DNA from: Promethearchaeota archaeon
GTDB taxonomy: Archaea; Asgardarchaeota; Lokiarchaeia; Sigyniarchaeales; SOKP01
DNA length: 37,789 nt
Direction: 5' to 3'
Assembly: GCA_011364925.1 (NCBI GenBank)
Contig: RDOA01000036.1
Coordinates: forward strand, 1-37,789
Shown here: positions 3,400 to 22,047 of the stretch, in pieces
How positions within the stretch are numbered: the first letter of the stretch is position 1
Layout: every line of letters starts with the position of its first letter
The notes under the pieces: generated by a model
What the model saw: the letters and a program-made list of their open reading frames with translations, nothing else
What the model was told of the DNA's origin: nothing
The model's database searches: none
Program-made: the position numbers and the translations under genes

Positions 3400-3480
3400 A
3401 CCTTTTAATTTAAGGAACTACTAATAGGTTTTTTTATTTTGTTAAGACTAACTTAATTTTATAAAGCATAATCATAAATA

Positions 3481-3554
3481 TGGGAGAGGGGGGATTCGAA
3501 CCCCCGACCACCTGGTCCCAAACCAGGAATCATACCAAGCTAGACCACCCTCCC
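3481..3554 (-). tRNA. tRNA-Pro (anticodon UGG), intronless, CCA not encoded
   Basis: Reverse complement GGGAGGGTGGTCTAGCTTGGTATGATTCCTGGTTTGGGACCAGGTGGTCGGGGGTTCGAATCCCCCCTCTCCCA. Acceptor stem GGGAGGG/CTCTCCC, anticodon arm CCTGG-TT-TGG-GA-CCAGG, T-loop GTTCGAATC. Confidence 0.97.
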
Positions 3555-3755
3555 TTTAAAATTGAGCAGATGTTTGATAGCCTATGTGATAATAAGGTAA
3601 TAAAAAATCATAAAAAGACAACAATAAGGATACAAATCTTTTTTCGATTTTTAATTTTTTTATTTCTTTATCCCGTTTAGTAGTAGATTTTGTTAAATCT
3701 AATAAATTAGGCATTATTTAACATCTTTAGATAAGCCCTCAAATTTCGCTTTAAA

Positions 3756-8828: not shown

Positions 8829-9725
8829 TTAAAATTCAATAGCGTCAATTACACCATCAAATACTTTTACGGCAGGACCTTCCATAAAAACGGATTCTCC
8901 TTTATAAGTAATTATTAGATCACCACCGTCATTATGGACTGTTACTGGAGTTTTTTCATTAAACAATCCTATAATCGTACCCGCAACTACGGCTGCGCAG
9001 GTGCCGGTTCCACACGAATTTGTTACTCCAACCCCCCTTTCAAATACTCTTAGCGACGCCTCATTTTTAGACAATACTTTTACGAATTCTACATTAGTCT
9101 TTTTTGGAAAAAGCTTGTTAGACTCGATTGCAGCCCCATATTTGTTTAAATCATCGTCATTAATGATTTCCTTGGTAAAAATAATAGCGTGAGGATTTCC
9201 CATAGAAACGGCAGTAAAATTGAAAATCTTATCAAATGCCACTATAGATTCATTAACACACTGGTTCACTGGATCTTCTAACTCAACGGGAATGCTTTCA
9301 CAATCCAAGATCGGTGTGCCCATATTAATTGTTACGGTTTTAACTTTATCGTTTAAAAGAGTGAGTTTAGCAATTAATATGCCTTTAAGAGTTTCGATTT
9401 CGATCTCATCTTTCTTATATATACCGTTTTCATAAAGATATTTGGCAAAACATCGAATTCCATTACCACACATCTCGCTTTCAGTACCATCGGGATTAAA
9501 CATTCTCATTCTTACTTCTGTTATTTTAGAACGACAAACGAACAAAACCCCATCAGCTCCAATAGAAAAATGAGGTTTACATAGAATTTTAGCCAAATCT
9601 GATTTTTTATCGTCAAGGATTCCATATTTAAGATTGTTAATTATTATATAATCATTACCCAGACCATGATACTTACCAAACTCTAAATTTTGTATTGTAA
9701 TTTTTTCCATCTTCAACAAACTCAC
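8829..9725 (-). CDS. dapF: Diaminopimelate epimerase
   Basis: KYHGLGNDY, GADG, EMCGNGIRC, SMGNPH, NVEF, ERGVGVTNSCGTG. Confidence 0.96.
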   Translation of the reverse strand: MSLLKMEKITIQNLEFGKYHGLGNDYIIINNLKYGILDDKKSDLAKILCKPHFSIGADGVLFVCRSKITEVRMRMFNPDGTESEMCGNGIRCFAKYLYENGIYKKDEIEIETLKGILIAKLTLLNDKVKTVTINMGTPILDCESIPVELEDPVNQCVNESIVAFDKIFNFTAVSMGNPHAIIFTKEIINDDDLNKYGAAIESNKLFPKKTNVEFVKVLSKNEASLRVFERGVGVTNSCGTGTCAAVVAGTIIGLFNEKTPVTVHNDGGDLIITYKGESVFMEGPAVKVFDGVIDAIEF

Positions 9726-9810
9726 ATAATATTATAATTTTTAAATTTCAACAAACCTTAATTTTGTTTTAACGTTATATCAAACTTAAAATTAATACCT
9801 AATCAGAATT

Positions 9811-10326
9811 ATGAAACGAACCTACCTTGCGATTACACTTCTTACTTTAATGGCTTTAATTCCAACTGCAAGTGTTTTTGGATTTGAGCACATTGATAAT
9901 ATAAATGATGGCATCTCCGTTTATTTCTTAGTTCAACTTGATGTTGGTGAAAACATAGAAATCAATGTAACTCACGATGGTCACGGTAATTTTACCCTCT
10001 TTCTTTATGACACTCGTCCTACTGAATCCTTTATTAATATCGATAAAAGTCTCAATCCCGCTATCTTCGATGTAGCAATAGTTTATAGTATTGATGACGA
10101 TCCATACATCAACTACACCGTATCTGAATCTAAAATCTATTACATCGAACTAATTCTGATTGAAAACGGACCTGATACTTTCTTCTTCTATTGTAATAAA
10201 GATGATTTAACTCGGTATTATCTTCCTATCATTCCAGGGTACCAAATAAATATGTTAATCTTAACAGTTATTCTAACCTCCAGTTTGATTTTTATATTCA
10301 CGAAAAAATTCAAAAAGATGCAGTAA
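9811..10326 (+). CDS. Secreted/surface protein with Loki-CTERM/PGF-CTERM-like anchor
   Basis: N-terminal signal peptide, a beta-rich domain, and C-terminal IPGY followed by a hydrophobic helix and TKKFKK. Confidence 0.7.
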   Translation: MKRTYLAITLLTLMALIPTASVFGFEHIDNINDGISVYFLVQLDVGENIEINVTHDGHGNFTLFLYDTRPTESFINIDKSLNPAIFDVAIVYSIDDDPYINYTVSESKIYYIELILIENGPDTFFFYCNKDDLTRYYLPIIPGYQINMLILTVILTSSLIFIFTKKFKKMQ

Positions 10327-10592
10327 TAATATCAAAATCCTTTTTTATCGTTCTTCTTCATATTTGACGAAATCCGAAGTTAAATATATTTAAGTTATGA
10401 TCGAATTCGTAAACATTATGTTAATCCTCTTTTCTTAACCGACTAAAATTACTCTTTTAGACGATCCTTGATCAATTTCCATCACATAATTTTAAATTCA
10501 ATTCACCAATAGCCTACCTATAGAATTAGTATTATAAAACAAAGTGATACGAAATTTCGTTCGATGAGATTAGTAAGAAATTAGCCCAACTA

Positions 10593-11744
10593 ATGAAAGA
10601 AACAGAGGAAATTGAACTGAAGGATGTTGATTTATTCGCAGAATATCTAGAGTTCCAAATGTTACCTAGCATTATTCAATCTGCAGCTCAAGCCGTTCTA
10701 CCTGGAATTGGAAAGGCAGAATGGACTTCCACCAAGTTTTCTATAGATCTAGAATTTCCCGGGCAGATCGAAACGGTTGAATTTGTCAGATCAAATGGAA
10801 AAAAGGCTATAATTGGCGGAGAAAAAGTTCCTCCATTTTACAACTTTCTAGGGCTGGATAAAAGAAATCCTCACCCGCCTTTAGTTACTTACGATGTTTT
10901 TGACATGGGCTCTAAGATGATGTTGCCTAAACCAATCAAGCAAGAATATGGAGAAGTTCTAGGAGATCCAGCAGAATGGGCAAAATTTGCTGTTAATAAA
11001 TTTGGTGCGCAGAGTATAACTTTCCACTCTTTAGAAATCGATCCAGCGATGGGTGATGCGCCAGTTTCACAATCTGTAAAATATCTAGAGGATATATTGC
11101 AAGCCGTAGATGTTCCCGTTATTATTGGTTGTTCCGGAAATAAAGAAAAGGATGTCGAATTATTTAAAGCTACCGCAGCAGCGACCGAAAGTGAAGTTTT
11201 AATGTTGTCAGCAGCTGATAAAGCGACGTGGGAAGAAGTCATCCCATTAGCTGTTAAATACGATCATAACTGCTTACTTTGGACAAGCTTGGATTTAAAT
11301 AATCAGATAAAAATGAATAAAGACGCGATAGAATTAGGGTTACCACGAAATAGAATTGTTATGGATCCAACATGTGCTACTTTAGGCTATGGTATGGAGT
11401 ATTCCTTTAGCATTTATCAAAGAATGCGTATAGCAGGACTTCTAGGAGAACAAGATTTAGCCTACCCGATCAGCGGTGGAACTACGAACGCATGGGGCGC
11501 ACGCGAAGCATGGATGAGTGAGAAGCAAGCTCCAGAATGGGGTTTAAGAGAATATAGAGGTCCTATTTGGGAAATCATAAATGCGTTAACTTTAAGCTTA
11601 GTAGGTTTAGATCTTGCTATGATGTTTTCTGGAAGAGCAGCTAAGCATGTAAGAGAAATAACGCAACAATTTTTTGGAGAAATTCCCAAACACTTAGAAG
11701 CAAAGGGTTATTACGATTGGGTTTCAGCAAGGATAAAAAGGTAA
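10593..11744 (+). CDS. cdhD: Acetyl-CoA decarbonylase/synthase complex delta subunit (corrinoid Fe-S protein small subunit)
   Basis: IGGEKVPPFY, DVFD, DPAEWAK, AVDVP.IIG.SGN.EKD, IVMDPT.ATLGYG.EY, TNAWGAREAW, RGPIWE. The frame is open upstream to a possible ATT start at 10554. Confidence 0.94.
   Translation: MKETEEIELKDVDLFAEYLEFQMLPSIIQSAAQAVLPGIGKAEWTSTKFSIDLEFPGQIETVEFVRSNGKKAIIGGEKVPPFYNFLGLDKRNPHPPLVTYDVFDMGSKMMLPKPIKQEYGEVLGDPAEWAKFAVNKFGAQSITFHSLEIDPAMGDAPVSQSVKYLEDILQAVDVPVIIGCSGNKEKDVELFKATAAATESEVLMLSAADKATWEEVIPLAVKYDHNCLLWTSLDLNNQIKMNKDAIELGLPRNRIVMDPTCATLGYGMEYSFSIYQRMRIAGLLGEQDLAYPISGGTTNAWGAREAWMSEKQAPEWGLREYRGPIWEIINALTLSLVGLDLAMMFSGRAAKHVREITQQFFGEIPKHLEAKGYYDWVSARIKR
11712..11731 (+). 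repeat. 20-bp perfect direct repeat, copy 1 (TACGATTGGGTTTCAGCAAG)
   Basis: Identical to 22000-22019. Confidence 0.95.
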
Positions 11745-11895
11745 AACAAACAGTTTTTTTTAATTTATTTTAATATTTTATAATATCTTCAAAAATTGAT
11801 CTTTATTATAAAATTTTCAAACTGTTAGATTTTAAATGGATAGTTTACCTTACCTTAATTAATTAAAAGCAAAAAATAGAAGCGATAACCGAAAA

Positions 11896-12843
11896 ATGAA
11901 CGAGTTCAAGATAAACAATTTATTAACTGTGAAGTTTAGATATCCATTAACAGAAATCTATGTCAACGGAAAGTATTTTATGCAGTGTAAAAAATTGGTC
12001 TTAAATTTATCAAGAAATCAATTAAAACAATACGATAGTATTGATTCTATCGACGGAGCTGCTGAAATTTACGATCATTACGTACGTGACCAAGAAATAC
12101 TTAAAGGAGATGGACCACCTGAAGTAGAAATCGACGAAGATTCTTCTTTAATTGACCCGAGAGAAGAATTTTGGGGTCATTGTAGCAATCTACAAGCGTG
12201 GGCTGAACACGACTACGATACAAGATTGCTGAAGGCAGATTTAGCATTTCCATTACTAGAAAAGCTTTCTAAAGTCGGAGACAAACGCGCTCAAGTCAGA
12301 TACAAAGAAGAGATCTTGAAGCGTCTTTCAGGTGGCACTAAGACTGTTGTAGAATTTCTTTTTGTTGAGGGTTATCAAGACGATTTAACTAACGAAGAAC
12401 TGTTATATGGATTACTTGAGCCGAGAGAAGCAGAAATTCTGATGGAAATACAACGAGAACTAAGTGTGATATATATGTTTGTTCCAAGTATCGATCGGAA
12501 CGTAGGACTTCAACATCCCGAAGATCCTTCTATGACTTATGAACAGAAAAGGAGCATCAGAGGGTTCTCGATAGAGGACAAGTGCGTGAAAGGGCTACAA
12601 CTCACGTTCGCTGAATTTCTTCATGTACCAACAGAAATACAAAATTTAAAAAAATTAAAACAAATGAGATTGAAAGGAAATTATTCAGAATTGAACTCAG
12701 ATGAAATCGTAAAAGGTATTCAGAAATTAAATGGACTTGAAGAACTCTTCTTAAGATCTAGCTTGGTACAAAACCTCGAGAAAACGAGTTTAAAAAAAAT
12801 AAAAAAAATAGGAAGAAAAATCTATCCTATAGTTGGAATTTAA
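11896..12843 (+). CDS. Lokiarchaeal-type LRR-associated protein
   Basis: N-terminal domain EFKIN..L......TEIYVNG..F.QC...EEFWGHCSNLQAW.E..YDTRLL...LAFPLL.KL...GD, recalled as an expanded Loki family. The C-terminus has degenerate LRRs (VPTEIQNLKKLKQMRL, IQKLNGLEELFL). Confidence 0.65.
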   Translation: MNEFKINNLLTVKFRYPLTEIYVNGKYFMQCKKLVLNLSRNQLKQYDSIDSIDGAAEIYDHYVRDQEILKGDGPPEVEIDEDSSLIDPREEFWGHCSNLQAWAEHDYDTRLLKADLAFPLLEKLSKVGDKRAQVRYKEEILKRLSGGTKTVVEFLFVEGYQDDLTNEELLYGLLEPREAEILMEIQRELSVIYMFVPSIDRNVGLQHPEDPSMTYEQKRSIRGFSIEDKCVKGLQLTFAEFLHVPTEIQNLKKLKQMRLKGNYSELNSDEIVKGIQKLNGLEELFLRSSLVQNLEKTSLKKIKKIGRKIYPIVGI

Positions 12844-15302
12844 GGATTTATGTTGTAAAACAAATATTTTTTCATTATCAAACGATAGCCCGGAAACAAA
12901 ATCTCCATGCGTTCCATATACTCCTTAATGAATCTGTTAATTTGTGTGATATCACGCTTCGGATTATCGATATAATGGAAGTAGGAATTAATATCGCTAT
13001 TTTGCGCCCTAGTATCAGAGCTCCAAGCCTTAGGATAAATCCAAAGCTTTTGCCATGTTTCACTATCCCCCCTAAAAATGGTAGAATATTTACTAATTAT
13101 CATACTTTGTGAATATATCTCATTTGGTTCAAGGAATCCCTCTCGGTTAAAAGCAAAGATCATCTCACCATCGTTCCATGTTCCTGTAAGCTTCTTTACT
13201 ACAAATGTAAATTTACCAGTATAAAGAAGATTAATGACATGTTGTAGTTTGAATAAGTCATTATCGTTATTTAAATCTATATCTAGATATGTTTCTCCGT
13301 CTGGAAGTAGTTGAAAACTATAGTCCTCAGCATTTCTAAATAGCTCACCACCAGTATTAATATCCCCTCCATCAAAAAGAGGAAAAATTCTAATTTTCTT
13401 ACCGTCTCCTAATACATCAATAAGTCCCGTTAAATATTTACGAATATTATGGCTGTTTTGAAGTAATAGCTTAGCTCTATAAGTACTATATTCATCAGAT
13501 TCAAGCAAAGCACGCTTGCCCCAAGCTACAATCCCATAGTCAACTAGTTCAGACTGTTTAATTTCCAACTTAAATGGTTGTCTAGATTTTGGCATTAGAT
13601 AATTAAATTCCAGAATAAAACTATTTTGTTTTGACTCTGCTTTATCATTGTCCATAAATGATTCTATTTGAAGTCTCAAATATCCAGCGGTCTTAGAGCC
13701 TGCTCTCTCAGATATCAAACCTAGTCGAGCGTGTTCAATTAATTGATTAGCTAACCATTTATTTTTAGTTTTATCCATATAATAATGACCATCGATAATC
13801 TGTGTTTTAATCTTTTTTGCAATAAAATCTAAAGTTCCTGATTGGTCGTTCAAGAAGTTTCTACCCAGAATACTTACATCTGTAGGATTGAGATTATCGA
13901 AGCGGTAGCGTTCATAAGTAGATTCCAAATAAATGCCTATTTCTCTTGATAGACTGCGAATATTCTCTCCACTGAACCCACCAGAGGCTGTTAGAGAGAC
14001 AAGAGGTCCCAATGGAAGACTTAACATGTTGTCGTCAGTTTTAACATTTGCCATATTCTCAATTTCTAGATATAAATGAGATTCTAAGTGAAAAAAGCCA
14101 AATAGAAAAGTAATGGTGCTTATCATATCATTCTTACTAGTATAAGATACTAGCCTTTGAACAGGTCGATCGTATTGGAACGTTGACGGAATTAAACCAA
14201 TCTTAAATAAGAAATCCCTCATGTATTGACGCTCTTCAAGAGGTAAATCTTTAGCTTTACCTCTAGGTTCCAATGAAGGCCTATTCAGAATCTTGATACC
14301 AAAAGAACCAGCATTTCCATAGTAATCAATCATATTGGTGAACATTAACCGAATTGTGAAATGACCGAAGATAACTTTAGCCGACTCGAATATTTCGACA
14401 CCCATCCTAGCTTCTTCGACAGTACATTCTTTCCTGTTCCTTGTAATAGAGGCATCATCAAGTTTGTGGTATTTAGGTTTTCCTAGATTTAATAATTTAT
14501 CTCTCTCTCTGGCGTAAATAGAACCGTCGTTATGGGGATAGCCTGTTATTTTGTCATAAATTAGTTTTAACCATTCTTTGTTTGTTTGCTCGTAATTAAA
14601 CACTAATATTCCAGTTTTTGGATCAACCTTTTTCCAAATCAATGATTGGAGTTCTGCTTCTGTAAATCCTAGTTTCTTAAGAGCCGTGTTAACTTCAGCT
14701 AATCCCGGTCCCAGACTGAATTCCTCGAAATTAGTACCGTGAGGAATACCGTTTAAATAAGATAAAAACTTCATAGCGAGAGTCTGAGTTCGTTGAGTAT
14801 AGAATTGGGTGTAAGGATCGAATAATTCGTAAAATATCCTCATAAAAACCTCTTTGGTAAATTCTTCTCCATAAACAATAGAAGAATCTCTTTTTGCGAA
14901 GGGATCACATATAATTTTACCTGTTTCTTCAGTTGAACTTCGTTTAATTCCGAGATTAAGATGAGACTGGAAGTGTGGTTCAAGTCTTGTCAATTTATAA
15001 TGCAAATTATCGCTTCTTGTAGACGGATCAGTTAAATGAACGAGAGTTCCTAGGCTTAAATGTTCATCACTCTCAGTAAAAGAAAAGACAGTGTAGATAT
15101 CTACATATTCGTTGTTTAAGTAATTCTCGTAATCTCCCCAATACTCGTCGTTTAACCAAAACTCTAATCCCCCAAATTCAATTAAATCAGGATCGAAAAA
15201 TTTGCTTAACAAACAGTTTCCATCTATATATGTAAGCAATGCGTTTCTAATAACTTTCCCCTTTACTAGGATACCGTCAACATACCCTTCAGGCGTTTTC
15301 AC
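12840..15302 (-). CDS. Large hypothetical protein (820 aa), possibly the C-terminal part of a split giant protein
   Basis: Long open frame with a GTG start overlapping the stop of the upstream ORF (GTGA); no recognised motif. Confidence 0.7.
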   Translation of the reverse strand: MKTPEGYVDGILVKGKVIRNALLTYIDGNCLLSKFFDPDLIEFGGLEFWLNDEYWGDYENYLNNEYVDIYTVFSFTESDEHLSLGTLVHLTDPSTRSDNLHYKLTRLEPHFQSHLNLGIKRSSTEETGKIICDPFAKRDSSIVYGEEFTKEVFMRIFYELFDPYTQFYTQRTQTLAMKFLSYLNGIPHGTNFEEFSLGPGLAEVNTALKKLGFTEAELQSLIWKKVDPKTGILVFNYEQTNKEWLKLIYDKITGYPHNDGSIYARERDKLLNLGKPKYHKLDDASITRNRKECTVEEARMGVEIFESAKVIFGHFTIRLMFTNMIDYYGNAGSFGIKILNRPSLEPRGKAKDLPLEERQYMRDFLFKIGLIPSTFQYDRPVQRLVSYTSKNDMISTITFLFGFFHLESHLYLEIENMANVKTDDNMLSLPLGPLVSLTASGGFSGENIRSLSREIGIYLESTYERYRFDNLNPTDVSILGRNFLNDQSGTLDFIAKKIKTQIIDGHYYMDKTKNKWLANQLIEHARLGLISERAGSKTAGYLRLQIESFMDNDKAESKQNSFILEFNYLMPKSRQPFKLEIKQSELVDYGIVAWGKRALLESDEYSTYRAKLLLQNSHNIRKYLTGLIDVLGDGKKIRIFPLFDGGDINTGGELFRNAEDYSFQLLPDGETYLDIDLNNDNDLFKLQHVINLLYTGKFTFVVKKLTGTWNDGEMIFAFNREGFLEPNEIYSQSMIISKYSTIFRGDSETWQKLWIYPKAWSSDTRAQNSDINSYFHYIDNPKRDITQINRFIKEYMERMEILFPGYRLIMKKYLFYNINP

Positions 15303-15940
15303 CTTTTTGTCGCTCCTTCAGAAAGAAAACTAATCGCATATAAAGGATCAAGTTCTGGATACGAAGAAGGATCGTATATATTATTTATTATTGTTCCATC
15401 AACTTCTAAATACAACCAATTATATGAGAAATTTGGTTGGACTAAGATCGAGATACTTCCTCCTGCGTCAAAATTAATATCGGTTGTAGAATCGAGATTC
15501 ACAGCAATAGTATCAGATTCGATATATAAAGGTTGAACAGAAATCCAATCAAAAATTCCGTTCTCTACATCGGATTGACTCACATCTATCGAATAGGACT
15601 GATTAACTGTTCCGAAATCAACAGGAAAGATATTCATACCATAACTTACATCGTATTGCGATCCATTAAACCAGAACTTTGTATAATCAATATTTTGGAT
15701 TTTACAGATAATATAAGACTCGTTATATGCGTTAAAAGTATTGTTTGTTTTCACCGTTCCTTCGTATAAAAAATCAGACAACTGAGGATTATACCACTTA
15801 CATGGTTTTTCGTTAAATTCTCCAACAGGAAGGTTAATAAGAGGTATAAATCCCGAAAAAAGCATAGCAAATACAATTGTAATTGCTACAAATGACTTGC
15901 TATACTTGTTTTTTATAATTCTATTTTTAGTAGTCGTCAT
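15299..15940 (-). CDS. Secreted/membrane-anchored beta-rich protein (possible N-terminal part of a larger surface protein)
   Basis: Basic N-terminus plus hydrophobic stretch (FVAITIVFAMLFSGFIPLI); N-x-S/T sequons NNT, NES, NGS, NQS, NFS; abrupt end. Confidence 0.65.
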   Translation of the reverse strand: MTTTKNRIIKNKYSKSFVAITIVFAMLFSGFIPLINLPVGEFNEKPCKWYNPQLSDFLYEGTVKTNNTFNAYNESYIICKIQNIDYTKFWFNGSQYDVSYGMNIFPVDFGTVNQSYSIDVSQSDVENGIFDWISVQPLYIESDTIAVNLDSTTDINFDAGGSISILVQPNFSYNWLYLEVDGTIINNIYDPSSYPELDPLYAISFLSEGATKR

Positions 15941-16001
15941 AAAGACAATATTTAAATATTCCCATAAAAAGATCGTCCTTAATCATTTAATATAAAAAAA
16001 T

Positions 16002-16028
16002 GTCAATACGGTCAATACAGTCAATATA
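16002..16028 (+). promoter_or_regulatory. Three tandem 9-bp repeats GTCAATACG/GTCAATACA/GTCAATATA, putative RHH operator
   Basis: Read directly in the sequence, ~60 bp upstream of ORF 15940. A similar triplet lies at 19076-19102. Confidence 0.55.
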
Positions 16029-16060
16029 AAATATTGAAAAGTAATTTGGATTAATCTTGT

Positions 16061-16603
16061 TCAAGATCTTTGAACAACGAAAATTGTAATTAAAACAATA
16101 AATGCGATTGTCCAACAAATAACATAGTATTTATAATATTTTGTCATCTCAAACTTTAAACGAATTAATCTTCTTATTCTATATTTCTTAATGAAATATT
16201 CCACATTTTCTGTTCCTAAAACCTTTCTCATGTTCTCAACGATTCTTCTTTTGTTATCCAAGTCCCATCTATCAGGGCAATAAGGAGTTATTTTCAAGAA
16301 TTCCTTATAAATCAATTTGTATATCGCATCAATTTTCTTTTTGAGATCTTCTTTATTAAACGGGTAATTAGGATCAAATATTAGCCTATAATACTCTCGA
16401 ATCGCATATGTAAATCCAACAATAGCTTTTTCGTTTCTCTCTCGCTTTTTTGTTCTAAAAATTGCAGTTATCTTTACTTGTTCAATTTTCTCTAACAATT
16501 GTTTGTAAGCTTCAAGAGAATTTTCCCCTTTTTCTACTCTTTCGATTAATTTTTTAATCCTATTTTTATATTCATCATTTTCTTTATTTTCCAAGTTTTT
16601 CAC
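16061..16603 (-). CDS. Hypothetical tail-anchored membrane protein
   Basis: Lys/Glu-rich helical body with a single C-terminal TM (YYVICWTIAFIVLITIFVV). GAGGTGA precedes an in-frame TTG a few codons in, which is the likely start. Confidence 0.6.
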   Translation of the reverse strand: MKNLENKENDEYKNRIKKLIERVEKGENSLEAYKQLLEKIEQVKITAIFRTKKRERNEKAIVGFTYAIREYYRLIFDPNYPFNKEDLKKKIDAIYKLIYKEFLKITPYCPDRWDLDNKRRIVENMRKVLGTENVEYFIKKYRIRRLIRLKFEMTKYYKYYVICWTIAFIVLITIFVVQRS

Positions 16604-16664
16604 CTCATTCTACTTTCTTTTTGAATTTCAGATTAAAAAATTGAATATACAGACTTGGTTTTAT

Positions 16665-16877
16665 CTATTCCTCATAGATAAATACAAACATAAAATCAAT
16701 TTCCTCTCGGAATTGGTCTTTATCATATGGAGATTTAGGATCACTTCTTAAAAAATTTTTTTCGATACTCTCTGATGTAATTTCTCGTATAAATATCACG
16801 AACTCATGATCTTTATAAACCTTACTAAGAGTTTGAACTATTTGACTTGTAAAAGTTCTAACATTTTTATTTATCAT
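16665..16877 (-). CDS. Small hypothetical protein or gene fragment (70 aa)
   Basis: ATG-start ORF co-oriented with its neighbours; no motif. Confidence 0.35.
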   Translation of the reverse strand: MINKNVRTFTSQIVQTLSKVYKDHEFVIFIREITSESIEKNFLRSDPKSPYDKDQFREEIDFMFVFIYEE

Positions 16878-17187
16878 TATCTAAAATATAATTGATTAAT
16901 ATCTATAGTTGGATTATATTAATATTTTATAAGAAAATATATAAGGTTATACATAAAATCACCCGAAAGCTAACTTATATGGTTAGGCATGAAGCATCTG
17001 TAAAAAAAGGATCCAAAAATTTGAGGATTTTTTTGTAAAAAGCGCATAGAGGAAGTGAAAATTGAAATAGCCAAGAAGTTTTTATTTTCACATTTCTTTT
17101 TTTATTTAATACAATTCTTATTTAAAAAGAAATATTAGTTCTAATTTATTTCAACCAATAAAACATGTATGAAAATATCGAAGAATT

Positions 17188-18549
17188 ATGGCGTTTAAGA
17201 AACTAGGGAAAGATTTAGAATCAATAATGCGGAAGTTACGAGGTTTATCTAAAATTGACAAGGAGGCAATTAACGTAATTATTCATGATTTGCAAAGAGC
17301 TTTATTAAGTGCTGATGTAAAAGTTGAGTTAGTTTTCCAGATGACAGAAAATATCAAAAAAGAAGCTATGAATAATGAATTAAAAAGAGCGAGAAGAAAG
17401 GATTTTGTAATTAAACTTGTTCATGATGAGTTAGTAAAAATAATAGGTGGAAAACCGACTCCAATTCGAATCAAATCTGGTAAGAGTAATATACTATTAC
17501 TTGTTGGAATCCAAGGTTCAGGGAAAACTACGACAATAGGGAAGTTACTGAGGTTCTACAAGAGCAAAGGATATAAGGTGGCCGCAGTTACGGCAGATAC
17601 ATGGCGACCAGGAGCATACGAGCAACTTGAGCAGCTTACGAGCCAAATTGGTGTAAAATGTTATGGAAATCCTAATGAAAAAAATACAATTAAACTTGTG
17701 GTTAGACAAACTAAAAAAGCCATAAATGACAAAAACGATATTATTATAGTCGATACAGCGGGGCGCCATAAGGAAGAAAAGGAACTAATGAAAGAAATGG
17801 AAAAAATTGAGGCTAATTTAAAACCTGACGAAGTGATCTTAGTAATTGACGGCAGTTTGGGGCAACAAGCTTATTCACAAGCAGAAGAGTTTGCTAAAGC
17901 TACTAATATTGGGAGTATTATTGTAACCAAATTAGATGGAACGGCTAAAGGAGGAGGAGCGCTTTCTGCTTGCGCTGCAACTAATCAATCTATAAGATTT
18001 ATAGGAGTTGGCGAAAAATTAGAGGATTTTGAAGAATTTAATCCAACAAGATTTATAGGCACTCTTCTAGGTATTCCTGATATAGGAAGTTTGGTGAATA
18101 GAGTACAAGAAGCTGAAATTAATATAGATCCAGATTCAGTTAAACGCATGATGAAAGGTAAATTTACACTGGACGATCTTTTAACTCAACTGAAAAATAT
18201 CAAGAGAGTTGGAAAAATAAAACAAATCTTCGCAATTATGGGAGGCGGCAATATACCTGAGGTTATAACTAATGATGCTGAAAAAAGCTTAGAGAAATGG
18301 GAAGTTATTTTAAATTCTTTGACTCAAGAAGAAAAGGACGACCCTAAAATTATAAAAAAAACTAGGAAAAGAAGAATTGGTATAGGAAGTGGGACAGACT
18401 ACGCTACAATAAATAGAATGCTCGACCAGTATAACCAAATGAAGAAATATATGAAAAAGGCTTTACAAATGCAACGGATGGGGAGAGGGGGTGGAACAAG
18501 TTTGCCACCAGGTTTTGATAATATATTTAGGGGATTCGATGGATTCTAA
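17188..18549 (+). CDS. srp54: Signal recognition particle protein SRP54 (NG + M domains)
   Basis: [57 protein letters not shown]; M domain KFTLDD...[10 protein letters not shown]. Confidence 0.95.
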
Positions 18550-18730
18550 ACTGATTATTTAGTTTTGATTAGTTTGGTAAATTTCTTATTATTATATTGA
18601 AAATATTTCTGAATATTCCAAGAAGGTTATAGATAATGGACAAGAGCATCTAGATGTGTATAACATGTGCTCAATCATAAGAGAATCTTTCTGTTGTTCT
18701 TCTTCAACTAAAAAAGACATTAATTAGTTA

Positions 18731-19111
18731 TTATTTTTTCTTCTTGTTCAGGAACAAATAACCAAGCGATTTCATCGTCCGGGATAGTCTAATCGCCTTC
18801 ATTATCTTACTCTTATCAAGATTCGCAGGAAGCCGGAGATTTCCTTTATTGAACTTCATTATTTTAATGAATTCAAAAATGCCTTCAACTAAGGCTTTAA
18901 TTTTAAATTCTTGAGGATTATTATCCAATTTGCCTGCAATTAAATTTGCTGAAACAGCGTCTAACATCAATTTTGACACGGGAATTCTTTTTAACCATGC
19001 TAATTCCTCGATTTTATCTTTTGTATCTTCATCTACACGAATCTGAATCCATTTATCTTTTTTCAATTTTTTTTTTGTATTGATTGTATTCAATGTATTG
19101 ACATTTTTCAT
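18731..19111 (-). CDS. Ribbon-helix-helix (CopG/Arc-like) DNA-binding protein
   Basis: KDKWIQIRVDEDTKDKIEELAWLKRIPVSKLMLDAV fits the beta-strand + helix + S..+..A helix RHH pattern. Confidence 0.7.
   Translation of the reverse strand: MKNVNTLNTINTKKKLKKDKWIQIRVDEDTKDKIEELAWLKRIPVSKLMLDAVSANLIAGKLDNNPQEFKIKALVEGIFEFIKIMKFNKGNLRLPANLDKSKIMKAIRLSRTMKSLGYLFLNKKKK
19076..19102 (-). promoter_or_regulatory. Three tandem 9-bp repeats (GTCAATACA/TTGAATACA/ATCAATACA) at the 5' end of the RHH gene
   Basis: Same AAAAATGTCAATAC lead-in and 9-bp period as 16002-16028. Confidence 0.5.
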
Positions 19112-19545
19112 TTGTATAAATCACCCTCAAAAAAATTATTAGATTTAACGTAATTATTTAATAGTGGTTCGGTAGAAACATTTGTTTTATATCCAAAATC
19201 ATTAGCCAATTGTAAAGATAGAAAGCGATCTTTGAATCTTGGAGTATTCTTCTCCCATATTTCCAATGTAAAGTCATCTATACTTGTAATCGTTATCCTA
19301 TATTGAATTTTTTCTTTATATTTCCATAACGCGGAAACTGTTTTTGTCAAGGTAGCTAAATATGGTTTAGTAGTAATTAATACATCGTTTCCAGCCTTAA
19401 ACAATTTCCTTACAACTTTTAAATCACTCCATTCTTTAATTCCCGTTGCTTTCTTCTTTACTCTTTGCCTTACTTCAGTAATTTTTCCTTTTTCACCTCT
19501 ACTTATACCAACTTTCTTCAGTTTAAACCATAAAATAAAAAAAAG
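19108..19545 (-). pseudogene. Internally deleted radical-SAM-like (SPL/DUF5131-like) gene remnant
   Basis: The frame is open upstream of the listed ORF: ...KKKATGIKEWSD joined directly to LKVVRKLFKAGNDVLITTKP...RITITS...WE...P....R...L.....G....VS.EP. The CxxxCxxC region expected after the TGxxEW motif is absent. Confidence 0.5.
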
Positions 19546-19676
19546 TCAAATTGGAGATTCGTTAATTCTTTTTGTTAAACCTATTCCTTCAATGAAAACA
19601 ATATTGGGATTCACTTTCGAGATTCTGAAGTTCCCTGCTTTTTCTTCCCAATAAATATTAGTTTTTATGGGCATAA

Positions 19677-19847
19677 TTATTCAATTTCGCCTCTGTAGGC
19701 GGTTTCAACTATATTTTCATCTCTGATTAGTACAACTCCAACTTTAGGATGAATTTCTTCATCTTCATTCTTACAATTTAATGAGATTTCGATTGCTTTT
19801 TCAATACCTCTAATTATATAATCAGGAATATTGTATTGATTAGTCAT
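19677..19847 (-). pseudogene. Truncated cytidine/RibD-type deaminase N-terminus (56 aa)
   Basis: Manual translation MTNQYNIPDYIIRGIEKAIEISLNCKNEDEEIHPKVGVVLIRDENIVETAYRGEIE*. It has PxVG-hydrophobic and A.RGE, and stops just before the expected HAE zinc motif. Confidence 0.55.
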
Positions 19848-20081
19848 TTCATCTATGAAATTATAATTTTAGACCTTCTTTTTAAATAGTCTTATTTTAA
19901 GTATTGGATTCCAACTAAATAAATTAATATTATTTATTAATTTTTAATTATCTTTGTCGAGAAATCCTCTTCCTTGAGGAAAATGGATTCTAACATTTTT
20001 ATTTTGTATATCATTATAAATAATTGAATTTCCTTTAGACAAATAGAATTTAATTATAATCATTATAATAACGTAATAAAA

Positions 20082-21929
20082 ATGGGATTAGATATTAATA
20101 TCTACAATTTTTTTGATATAATTAAGGAATCTTATAGGTTCATAGACTTTAGAAGCATATTGTATAGAAAAAATAAAGTGTGGATTCGATTTCTAACTAT
20201 ATTGAGATTTTCTAATGAATCAGAAGAAGAAATAAAAAAAAGGTATGAAATACTTAAATTAAGGCGCTATAAAACTGACAATTTAATAATTGATTATCAA
20301 ATTCTCGAAGTTTCTGAATGGGAAGATAAGATTATTAGTATTTACGATGAACTTAATGAAGAGTTCGAAATATATGACTACAACGATTTTAGATACGATT
20401 ATAACAAATATAATAAATTCTTGGAGGATATGTTTAGCGATGTTAAAATCTCTCTGAATACACCCAATAGGAGATTCTTTTTAACTGAAAACGAGCTCAG
20501 TGAAAATAATCTAATTACTTTTAATTTAGGGTTTAATACAAATGAAAAACACTTAAATTTTAGTAATGTTGCGAATAGAGAAATTTTACTTTTAGGAGAT
20601 AATAATATCTATGATGTTATAAATCGTACATTTCAACTTGAGGGTTATGATTCAAACAACAATTTAAACATTTTAATTAATTTCCCGATATATTTCAGAT
20701 TTGTTAATTTACAATTTTCACAGCAGCAGCTAAGTGGAAAAATTATATATCATAAAATATATAAAGGCTCAAAAATCTTTTTCAGAATCTATTCTGAACC
20801 AAGTTTTCGTGAGGAATTTTTTGTAGGTGATAAAAATTTTATCATTGGAGAAGATTCTGAAGAAAATGTTGAGAAAAATAATGGACTAATTGAATGTTCT
20901 TTTAATATTTCTTTTAAAGAATTTGATTGCGATCCTAATTTTAAAATCAGAGTATACTGGAATAAAATTAAAACAAATATACTAGATTACCAGAATTCAT
21001 TCGATACTCCACGATATAATAAATTATTTGAAGAAATGAACTCTGAAATTAAATCTGAAGAAAAAAAATTGACTATTGATGATACCATTCAATTCAATGA
21101 AAATTTTATCGATATTGATTTTTCAGATTATGACCTTACATATTATAAATCATACATCGAATTAATTAACGGGATTGCTATTCATCCCGATTTCTATATG
21201 ATCTTACCACTTTTGTTGAGGACATTATTTGAAAATCTCCTCAAAGATATTTTCGCTCAAAGTCTGCACAATTCTAGTTCCGATCTTTATTATAGAGGAG
21301 GGAATCGACATCATGATTTTTCTAAGTTAATTGCTTTGTTAGATCTTCTCAAGGATAATGAATATGGTCCTTACATAAGTGGAAAAATAACAAAAGAGGT
21401 TATAAACGAATTAGAGGATATTCGTGAAATGGGAAACATAACGGTACATGATATTATACGTAAAACCCCATCAACTTATACTAAAGAAAAAAAGGATAAA
21501 ACAATAATAACTTTAAAACCTCTGCTAGTGGCATATAAGAATCTTAATGGAAAAAATATCCTTGTTAAAAATGAAAGGAAATATCAAATTAAACTTAAGT
21601 TGGGATTAATAAAAAAAGAAGATAAAAAAGATCAAACCAAAAGTAAAAAGAAAAAAAAATCAATAAAAAATAATCAGATTACGGACACCTCAAAAATATC
21701 AAGTCTCATGTCAGAAATAAGAGCTCTAATAACGAGTGATTCCATTGATTCTTTAAATATTCGAAATAAAATGGATGAACTTTTACTCAATTTGAAACCG
21801 TTACTTAACAATAGACAACGTGATGCCCTTGGAAAAATATACATTATCTTTAATCAATTCGTAGAGTCTGGATTTAAAGATTCTGCGCAAATTTTGTTTG
21901 ATGCGATAAATAAGATAATTTTAGGATGA
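20082..21929 (+). CDS. 615-aa protein with putative HEPN (DUF4145-like) domain
   Basis: LLRTLFENLL ... FSKLIALL ... LEDIREMGNITVH matches the R..E / R..GN...H HEPN arrangement. Very AT-rich. Confidence 0.55.
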   Translation: MGLDINIYNFFDIIKESYRFIDFRSILYRKNKVWIRFLTILRFSNESEEEIKKRYEILKLRRYKTDNLIIDYQILEVSEWEDKIISIYDELNEEFEIYDYNDFRYDYNKYNKFLEDMFSDVKISLNTPNRRFFLTENELSENNLITFNLGFNTNEKHLNFSNVANREILLLGDNNIYDVINRTFQLEGYDSNNNLNILINFPIYFRFVNLQFSQQQLSGKIIYHKIYKGSKIFFRIYSEPSFREEFFVGDKNFIIGEDSEENVEKNNGLIECSFNISFKEFDCDPNFKIRVYWNKIKTNILDYQNSFDTPRYNKLFEEMNSEIKSEEKKLTIDDTIQFNENFIDIDFSDYDLTYYKSYIELINGIAIHPDFYMILPLLLRTLFENLLKDIFAQSLHNSSSDLYYRGGNRHHDFSKLIALLDLLKDNEYGPYISGKITKEVINELEDIREMGNITVHDIIRKTPSTYTKEKKDKTIITLKPLLVAYKNLNGKNILVKNERKYQIKLKLGLIKKEDKKDQTKSKKKKKSIKNNQITDTSKISSLMSEIRALITSDSIDSLNIRNKMDELLLNLKPLLNNRQRDALGKIYIIFNQFVESGFKDSAQILFDAINKIILG

Positions 21930-21930
21930 T

Positions 21931-22032
21931 AGACATGTAAAAGATATTACTGCGCAATTCTTTGCAGAAATTCCAAAAGTTATGGAAGATAAAGGATACT
22001 ACGATTGGGTTTCAGCAAGAATCAAAAAATAA
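21931..22032 (+). pseudogene. cdhD: Displaced duplicate of the cdhD 3' end (att-like remnant)
   Basis: Translates RHVKDITAQFFAEIPKVMEDKGYYDWVSARIKK* versus CdhD KHVREITQQFFGEIPKHLEAKGYYDWVSARIKR* (24/33 aa, 76/102 nt by manual count). Confidence 0.92.
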
Positions 22033-22047
22033 ATCTTTTTAAATCAC

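Follow-up and report, generated by a model that had tools for sequence, protein, structure and literature searches.

SRP54, whose product directs newly made proteins to the membrane, is treated as a universal, essential, single-copy gene and is used as both a phylogenomic and a completeness marker. Specialised duplicates of targeting and secretion components are known—SecA2/SecY2, chloroplast cpSRP54, and FlhF, all old, conserved subfamilies with defined partners—and we know of no earlier case of a substrate-specialised SRP in archaea. For the insertion side of the story, the familiar examples are e14 and phage 21 of E. coli, which insert in icd and replace the 3' end of that gene. SRP54 itself is essential; it binds helix 8 of 7S RNA together with SRP19, recognises signal sequences at the ribosome, and docks on FtsY (PMC2568955). 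The gene described here, from the window (the whole stretch of 37,789 nucleotides analysed), shares its domain order and GTPase motifs with archaeal SRP54 (arCOG01228, K03106; P. furiosus 3DM5, M. jannaschii 3NDB), and its M domain has the SM-like and R..R...G.G RNA-binding stretch of canonical Lokiarchaeal copies. It differs from canonical archaeal SRP54 in being a second copy, in lying outside the eIF5A/SPOUT locus within a polymorphic insert (the island), and in having replaced groove residues of the finger loop. The specialised duplicates might serve by analogy as a precedent for a second targeting factor with substrates of its own, but the island copy, unlike them, is found in a single species, has no co-occurring partner, and retains ordinary SRP54 architecture.

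The island gene, at positions 17188–18549 (forward strand), is uninterrupted and encodes a protein of 453 aa that comprises N, G, and M domains, bearing out the original prediction of a full-length SRP54 between repeats of cdhD. The protein passes the Pfam cut-offs for PF02881 (SRP54_N, residues 6–82), PF00448 (SRP54 GTPase, 101–294), and PF02978 (SRP_SPB, 325–422), corresponding to the N four-helix bundle, the SRP GTPase, and an M domain at the C-terminus. Its top relative of solved structure is P. furiosus SRP54 (E 1e-122, residues 2–433), and the named homologs recovered by protein search are Lokiarchaeota/Promethearchaeota SRP54. No archaeal model matched in the NCBIfam scan, where the best scores were 392 for the bacterial model TIGR00959 (cut-off 473) and 380 for the eukaryotic model TIGR01425 (cut-off 576); FlhF models scored far lower. 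The GTPase motifs (G1, DARGG-type, DTAGR, TKLD, and the closing loop) are the same as in the canonical copy on contig C16, the RNA-binding region of the M domain (residues 373–428) holds four derived changes in 56 sites, and the NSLT..E and RKRRI..GSG stretches match canonical Lokiarchaeal copies except for A398G. Roughly 43 substitutions are specific to the lineage; they concentrate in the GM linker and the finger loop, with F421Y in addition. An AlphaFold model was of low confidence (pLDDT 59) and was set aside. On every sequence feature examined, the island protein belongs to the SRP54 family. It represents no new system, and its peculiarity is that of a second copy which was probably transferred and has been retained.

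The host genome (3.9 Mb, 100% complete, 4.2% contaminated) carries its housekeeping SRP54 at C16:29267–30643, 86% identical to the island copy in amino acids and 78% in nucleotides. There the gene is bordered by eIF5A, NAD kinase, PIN, FEN1, and CDC48 on one side and by the PF04013 methyltransferase on the other; it is the C16 copy, and not the island copy, that sits in this eIF5A-NAD kinase-FEN1/SPOUT locus. The C16 gene is thus the host's housekeeping copy and the window gene an extra one. A count of SRP components gave two SRP54 genes, one FtsY (C70), and one SRP19 (C11); 7S RNA was not found in the host assembly (G000), probably reflecting an assembly gap, since the gene next to it lies at a contig end (C60). 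Genes on C16 and those flanking the insert in the window are equally distant from the related genome G044 (pS mostly 0.5–0.65), which argues that both contigs derive from one host.

The island is a 10.3-kb insert (11628–21932) that is present in some alleles and absent from others. It supplies a replacement 3' end of cdhD (11628–11744, +), while the displaced original end persists as an orphan copy (21933–22033, +), recognised by repeat comparison and from the empty allele. The two copies of the last 100 nt of cdhD (11646–11745 and 21934–22033) flank the island SRP54 and are 76% identical. In sequencing run X1, a single contig of 7169 nt covers 11531–18699 with 0 differences at an even depth of ~37, and the following contig covers 18670–22284 at a depth of 33. 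Run X2, from a different study, contains identical pieces of the insert together with a contig that joins 11627 directly to 21933, i.e., the empty site; in four relatives (G024, G002, G005, and G010), cdhD is likewise closely followed by TusA/DsrE genes. The insert is therefore real, polymorphic, and no mis-join, given that one X1 contig spans cdhD to SRP54 at even depth. Contamination of the metagenome-assembled genome (4.2%), and doubled counts in G114, G139, G014, and G022 that look like contamination, might be taken to suggest that the second copy is an assembly or binning artefact, or that it is the genome's only SRP54. This is extremely improbable in view of the contig across the junction, the identical pieces in a second study, the single-copy, syntenic genes flanking the insert, the canonical gene on C16, and the lack of any duplicated housekeeping-gene block among the 16 close paralog pairs of the genome. 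The C16 copy and the empty site also dispose of the suggestion that a sole SRP54 might lock the island in place. To the left of cdhD (9666–10415), the letters of the window differ at several positions from the dominant contigs of all runs examined, indicating high local strain variation, and the window may come from a source other than X1.

The replacement end of CdhD begins with S-G-R (11628–11636), where 26 of 26 relatives and the empty allele have H-P-V/I; the insert may thereby alter or impair the small subunit of the corrinoid iron-sulfur protein. Its junction is imprecise—17 nt of the host allele are absent and three conserved codons are replaced. Two traits of integrative elements, an empty site and duplication of the target end, are present, but an integrase of its own and an exact att core were not found at the insert (repeats only 76% identical, imprecise junction): Pfam and NCBIfam searches of the insert ORFs detected no integrase, transposase, or serine recombinase, and the only PF00589 tyrosine recombinase of the genome lies on C27, outside the insert. 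By analogy, e14 and phage 21 in icd look alike in that the target is restored by an incoming, diverged 3' end with the old end orphaned downstream; they would differ in the lack of an integrase here, in the imprecise junction, and in that the orphan ends of other genomes begin at different codons. Such orphan cdhD ends occur in G056, G078, G083, G091, and G105, with unrelated cargo, differing starts, and no integrase seen nearby, and the 3' end of cdhD is thus a recurrent insertion hotspot across the family. Two origins are compatible with the insert: illegitimate recombination anchored by homology, or an old site-specific element that has since lost its ends and integrase to erosion.

Two further observations concern cdhD in relatives. 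Orphan ends are stacked in places, with three copies in G078 (loci L093, L094, and L075 in G056; L155, L156, L157, and L159). Separately, after codon ~263 the gene carries an insert of 32 or 36 nt with an in-frame stop in seven relatives (L057, L056, and L058 in G015, G001, and G057; L049, L051, L155, and L156 in G056, G016, G083, and G078), which is absent from this window. It folds into a hairpin that has two bulges of 3 nt and a central helix of 4 bp. Cuts within the bulges would restore A-T-L-G, so that the insert resembles, from its sequence, an mRNA intron of the bulge-helix-bulge type within a Wood-Ljungdahl gene.

DNA similarity between the island and the canonical SRP54 locus extends past both ends of the ORF, spanning 17079–18725, and stops abruptly. 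Captured upstream DNA occupies 16972–17187 (+). Of this, 17079–17187 corresponds to the intergenic DNA between eIF5A and SRP54 at the canonical locus, with changes at 9 of 67 columns that are normally invariant; the other ~107 nt (16972–17079) match an extension that only G014 and G013 have, upstream of their canonical gene. On the other side, 18565–18725 (+) is a pseudogene stub holding the first ~50 codons of the canonical downstream gene, the PF04013 SPOUT-type methyltransferase, frameshifted by a 1-nt insertion and with a premature stop; its nucleotide identity is 89% to G049, 83% to G044, and 74% to the host's C16 copy. SRP54 thus arrived as a ~1.75-kb chromosomal slice comprising upstream DNA, the gene, and the start of the next gene. 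The claim that the gene has no housekeeping neighbours is accordingly right about the ORFans, fragments, and ribbon-helix-helix (RHH) gene around it, but not about its immediate borders, where canonical intergenic DNA and the methyltransferase stub travel along.

The island copy groups with G044 in trees of both protein (support 100/98; branch 0.15 versus 0.02) and DNA (support 88/95). Its C-terminal tail is of the G044/G049 type, unlike C16, and its synonymous distance is 0.78–0.86 to G024/G044 as against 1.37 to C16. The tree that the original prediction called for thus separates the island copy from the host copy, but the AU test does not reject their grouping (p 0.157), so that the copy may alternatively stem from an old duplication. 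Since tail, stub, and upstream extension match G044/G049/G014 and not C16, the donor was most likely a congener similar to G044. Two other proposals were rejected: recombination of the tail from the lineage of protein P0045 is unnecessary, as the canonical genes of G044 and G049 carry the same tail, and a 70-aa upstream ORF showed no match to the 201-aa gene beside SRP54 in the P0045 lineage, of which it might have been a remnant. At its canonical locus (L077), G049 is itself a mosaic: the body of its SRP54 falls in the G008 clade, whereas the tail and the beginning of the gene downstream share 88% identity with the island copy, a case of between-species recombination at the 3' end of a housekeeping gene. 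An accessory, island-borne status, as first proposed, is supported, and none of the three conditions set for its refutation holds: the copy is not the sole one, its context is not canonical, and its long branch lies nearer to another species than to the host copy.

The remaining cargo was of interest for a further proposal, namely that SRP54 is a standing part of a mobile element, targeting the secreted and tail-anchored proteins encoded at 15299–16603. The gene is indeed island-borne, lies beside an element-type RHH gene, and is divergent from genes whose products have N-terminal and C-terminal hydrophobic segments. The first of these, at 12840–15940 (−), comprise a 213-aa ORF with an N-terminal hydrophobic segment, homologous to the N-terminus of a 3292-aa protein in G018, and an 820-aa ORF homologous to C-terminal parts of longer proteins; judged by this homology, they are probably the two ends of one internally deleted giant secreted protein. 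Converging on the 820-aa ORF is a gene for an LRR-type protein (11896–12843, +), a pairing also seen in G078 and, at cdhD, in G056, which has one SRP54. The 180-aa protein with a C-terminal hydrophobic segment (16061–16603, −) has homologs in G042, G012, and on host contig C76, all without adjacent SRP54. To the right of SRP54 lies a remnant of a virus- or plasmid-like element (18731–19416, −), consisting of the RHH gene (18731–19111) and a radical-SAM (DUF5131-like) fragment, 78% and 72% identical, respectively, in nucleotides to contig L168. On L168, where many small ORFs and a D12 DNA methyltransferase surround them, the two are separated by ~2.8 kb, a stretch deleted between them in the insert. 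A 615-aa ORF at the right edge (20082–21929, +) has a partial homolog in G046, not at cdhD, and no match in Pfam, NCBIfam, or PADLOC; for the insert ORFans, the ESM Atlas, PADLOC, and NCBIfam returned nothing usable. The insert as a whole is a decaying mosaic.

Against such a protein-targeting module, no FtsY, SRP19, or 7S RNA was found in the insert, related neighbours occur elsewhere without SRP54, and the secreted gene appears broken. Moreover, tail-anchored proteins are not typical co-translational substrates of SRP. Nor did a survey of the closest homologs reveal a second association of SRP54 with an element: the nearest protein among 8000 scored candidates was 87% identical, no SRP54 relatives were found in viral contigs, and an exact 26-mer search of metagenome contigs gave no match. 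A candidate family of island-borne copies, the 453-aa homologs with similar tails (P0039, P0045, P0073, and P0084), proved to consist of canonical chromosomal genes. The module is therefore unsupported and largely refuted, and we consider it very improbable.

Apart from SRP54, the giant-protein C-terminal domain with its convergent LRR gene recurs in several genomes (window 11896–15302; L075, L094, and L161); G056 has two variants of the pair at the same site, in a layout that may resemble polymorphic effector/immunity loci. Triple GTCAATAC-like repeats occur at 15996–16031 and 19073–19108 of the window and near position 861 of C76 in G000; one codes for the N-terminus of the RHH protein, one follows the 180-aa gene, and one follows its C76 paralog, making them a possible operator. 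Elsewhere in the window, a tRNA gene (3481–3554, −) overlaps a spurious 66-aa ORF (3480–3680).

Divergence of the island copy was estimated from pairwise and three-taxon distances. The three-taxon dN/dS of its branch is 0.09 (0.06–0.13), where part of the branch may predate capture; some of this low value may hence date from the donor chromosome. A relative-rate test counts 43 amino acid changes in the island copy versus nine in its sister (p 2e-6), i.e., 4–5 times more. The co-captured flanks offer an internal clock when compared with the ORF over columns invariant in nine canonical loci: 16 of 147 flanking columns have changed (11%; 7/80 downstream and 9/67 upstream), as against 33 of 741 in the ORF (4.5%; p 0.005). 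By part, the counts are 20/504 for NG, 10/134 for linker plus finger loop, and 3/103 for the region that binds RNA, with NG and that region together (23/607) differing from the flanks at p 0.001; compared with the downstream stub alone, the ORF differs at p 0.10. Under 5–12% neutral drift by substitutions alone, a stop-free frame has a probability of 0.026–0.001. Only two of the 43 derived changes fall at columns conserved to at least 99%, versus 13 expected if neutral, and their mean BLOSUM score is +0.63 versus −0.24 under neutrality; neither value was reached in any of 1500 simulations. GC>AT changes outnumber AT>GC changes by 26 to 12, the bias that relaxed selection would be expected to leave in an AT-rich genome. 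Taken together, these comparisons indicate purifying but relaxed selection on the island SRP54, with decayed flanks around an intact ORF.

Part of this pattern could also arise if the gene were a silent passenger in early decay, constrained in the donor or soon after capture, no longer expressed, and not yet struck by a disabling mutation. Its surroundings do decay: the stub is frameshifted, the element remnant and the giant gene have suffered deletions, and the upstream block is eroded. The copy itself is found in one species among 370 genomes, an empty allele coexists with it, and erosion of the conserved upstream block means that the promoter may be damaged. On the other hand, the ORF is significantly less decayed than the flanks captured with it, 1362 nt contain no stop or frameshift, and the excess changes avoid the invariant core, whereas canonical sisters have no comparable excess. 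We consider silent decay rather unlikely. A harmful or useless expressed copy would be expected to tolerate or even favour stops, and their absence points instead to positive retention.

The distribution of changes within the protein raises the alternative of a specialised accessory SRP54, in which a remodelled, methionine-poorer groove would accept another class of signals or anchors—for example, those of giant surface proteins—giving two SRP populations that share RNA and receptor. Groove residues of M. jannaschii SRP54 (PMC4468861) were mapped to island numbering through a structure-relative alignment, yielding sixteen sites. Five of these are replaced (M344I, L348F, M350I, L360I, and F421Y), with two methionines lost and all five still hydrophobic; of the six finger-loop groove residues listed for M. 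jannaschii, four are changed. The enrichment has p 0.017 (0.022 when conservation-matched; 0.08 within the M region alone). Across the linker and finger loop (residues 295–372), 17 of 78 positions are changed versus 23 of 294 in NG (p 0.0015), and the variability of this region among canonical proteins does not exceed that of the N domain. Regions and sites were, however, picked after inspection of the data, such that the tests are suggestive, and several groove changes are single G>A or G>T steps. In addition, the linker and finger loop (7.5%) do not exceed the neutral flanks (10.9%; p 0.41), so that positive selection finds no support.

A survey across Asgard archaea bears on the same alternative. 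Two M domains were present in seven of 370 genomes with an M-domain match, of which three hold credible extra copies: the island genome, G150 with a tandem pair, and Ca. Lokiarchaeum ossiferum, whose closed genome is G065. Three of the others look like contamination. The G150 extra is a tandem duplicate (79% aa, dN/dS 0.17) with a rewritten linker and 11 of 16 groove sites changed. That of L. ossiferum (UYP47219.1 / WP_457916865.1; canonical UYP47732.1) is dispersed, 75% identical to the canonical protein, and old, with a dS of 2.8, dN/dS of 0.06, and 5 of 16 groove sites changed. Like the island copy, both are intact, fast-evolving extras with altered grooves and retained GTPase motifs; unlike it, the L. 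ossiferum gene is a dispersed and old copy around which no signs of an island were seen, and the G150 gene is a tandem duplicate with its linker rewritten. All three have long branches, have lost M350 (conserved in 146 of 147 canonical sequences), and have changed A167 and position 421, with methionines in residues 295–428 falling from 10 to 7, 10 to 6, and 15 to 9. Such parallels, and the age and constraint of the L. ossiferum and G150 pairs, favour specialisation, but the changed sites of the island copy coincide with those of the other two no more often than chance would predict (p 0.14, 0.24), and each extra copy is confined to one species, with no conserved accessory SRP54 subfamily found. 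The three copies arose independently, each grouping with its own lineage. Groove enrichment and its recurrence in the two other extras fit specialisation as well as redundancy; for the island copy we consider a specialised role possible but doubtful. RefSeq names UYP47219.1 'signal recognition particle receptor subunit alpha' despite its M domain; the gene lies at L145:9357–10745, or ~4.128–4.130 Mb on the chromosome. No paper discussing this protein or the G150 extra was found, nor any report of extra SRP54 in Asgard archaea in the literature searched, although absence is not proven.

Our preferred reading, which we hold with about even confidence, is that the island gene is a redundant extra SRP54 under relaxed purifying selection, captured from a related Lokiarchaeote. 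A ~1.75-kb slice of that species' SRP54 locus would have been captured beside a mobile-element fragment and come to sit in the mosaic 10.3-kb insert at the 3' end of cdhD, a repeatedly used insertion site. We infer that the protein is still expressed, or was until recently; it would assemble on the host's single 7S RNA with SRP19 and dock on the single FtsY, a partnership proposed because the surfaces concerned are conserved (mechanism as in PMC2568955). It would then vie with the housekeeping SRP54 for a single RNA and a single receptor, as a largely redundant subunit for dosage or back-up that does not particularly serve the island's own genes, while the signal-binding groove, its most tolerant part, would drift fastest, partly by GC-to-AT mutation. 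A broader idea—that Lokiarchaeia repeatedly keep a second SRP54, by transfer or duplication, with the groove retuned and the GTPase and RNA contacts fixed, yielding two SRP populations with different cargo preference—is one we put forward tentatively and think improbable.

In the case of the island, an SRP54 appears to have passed from one species to another and to have persisted there, under selection, as an additional copy. The original prediction that such a paralog would matter for marker phylogenomics seems fair: choosing the wrong copy produces a long branch with an incorrect sister, and contamination scores rise where a second copy is genuine, as in the closed L. ossiferum genome, which holds two SRP54 genes and is scored 10% contaminated. 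Should cargo specificity have shifted in the extra copies, these would be the first substrate-specialised archaeal SRPs known to us, in the lineage nearest eukaryotes; if it has not, the locus is a natural experiment on an essential gene turned redundant, with a neutral clock in its flanks. The main weight of the finding lies in its recurrence and in L. ossiferum being cultured and hence testable.

Other doubled counts were set aside: G114 has a very distant SRP54 on a foreign-looking 9-kb contig, G139 has two contigs in canonical context (89% nt), the G014 extra is on a 506-nt contig, and the G022 count reflects two FtsY genes with the same neighbours, all likely contamination; the G291 extra is a 173-aa piece at a contig end. 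Doubled SRP54 or FtsY thereby also flags likely contaminating contigs in these assemblies, namely L139 (G114 C39), L146/L147 (G022), L141/L142 (G139), and L097 (G014).
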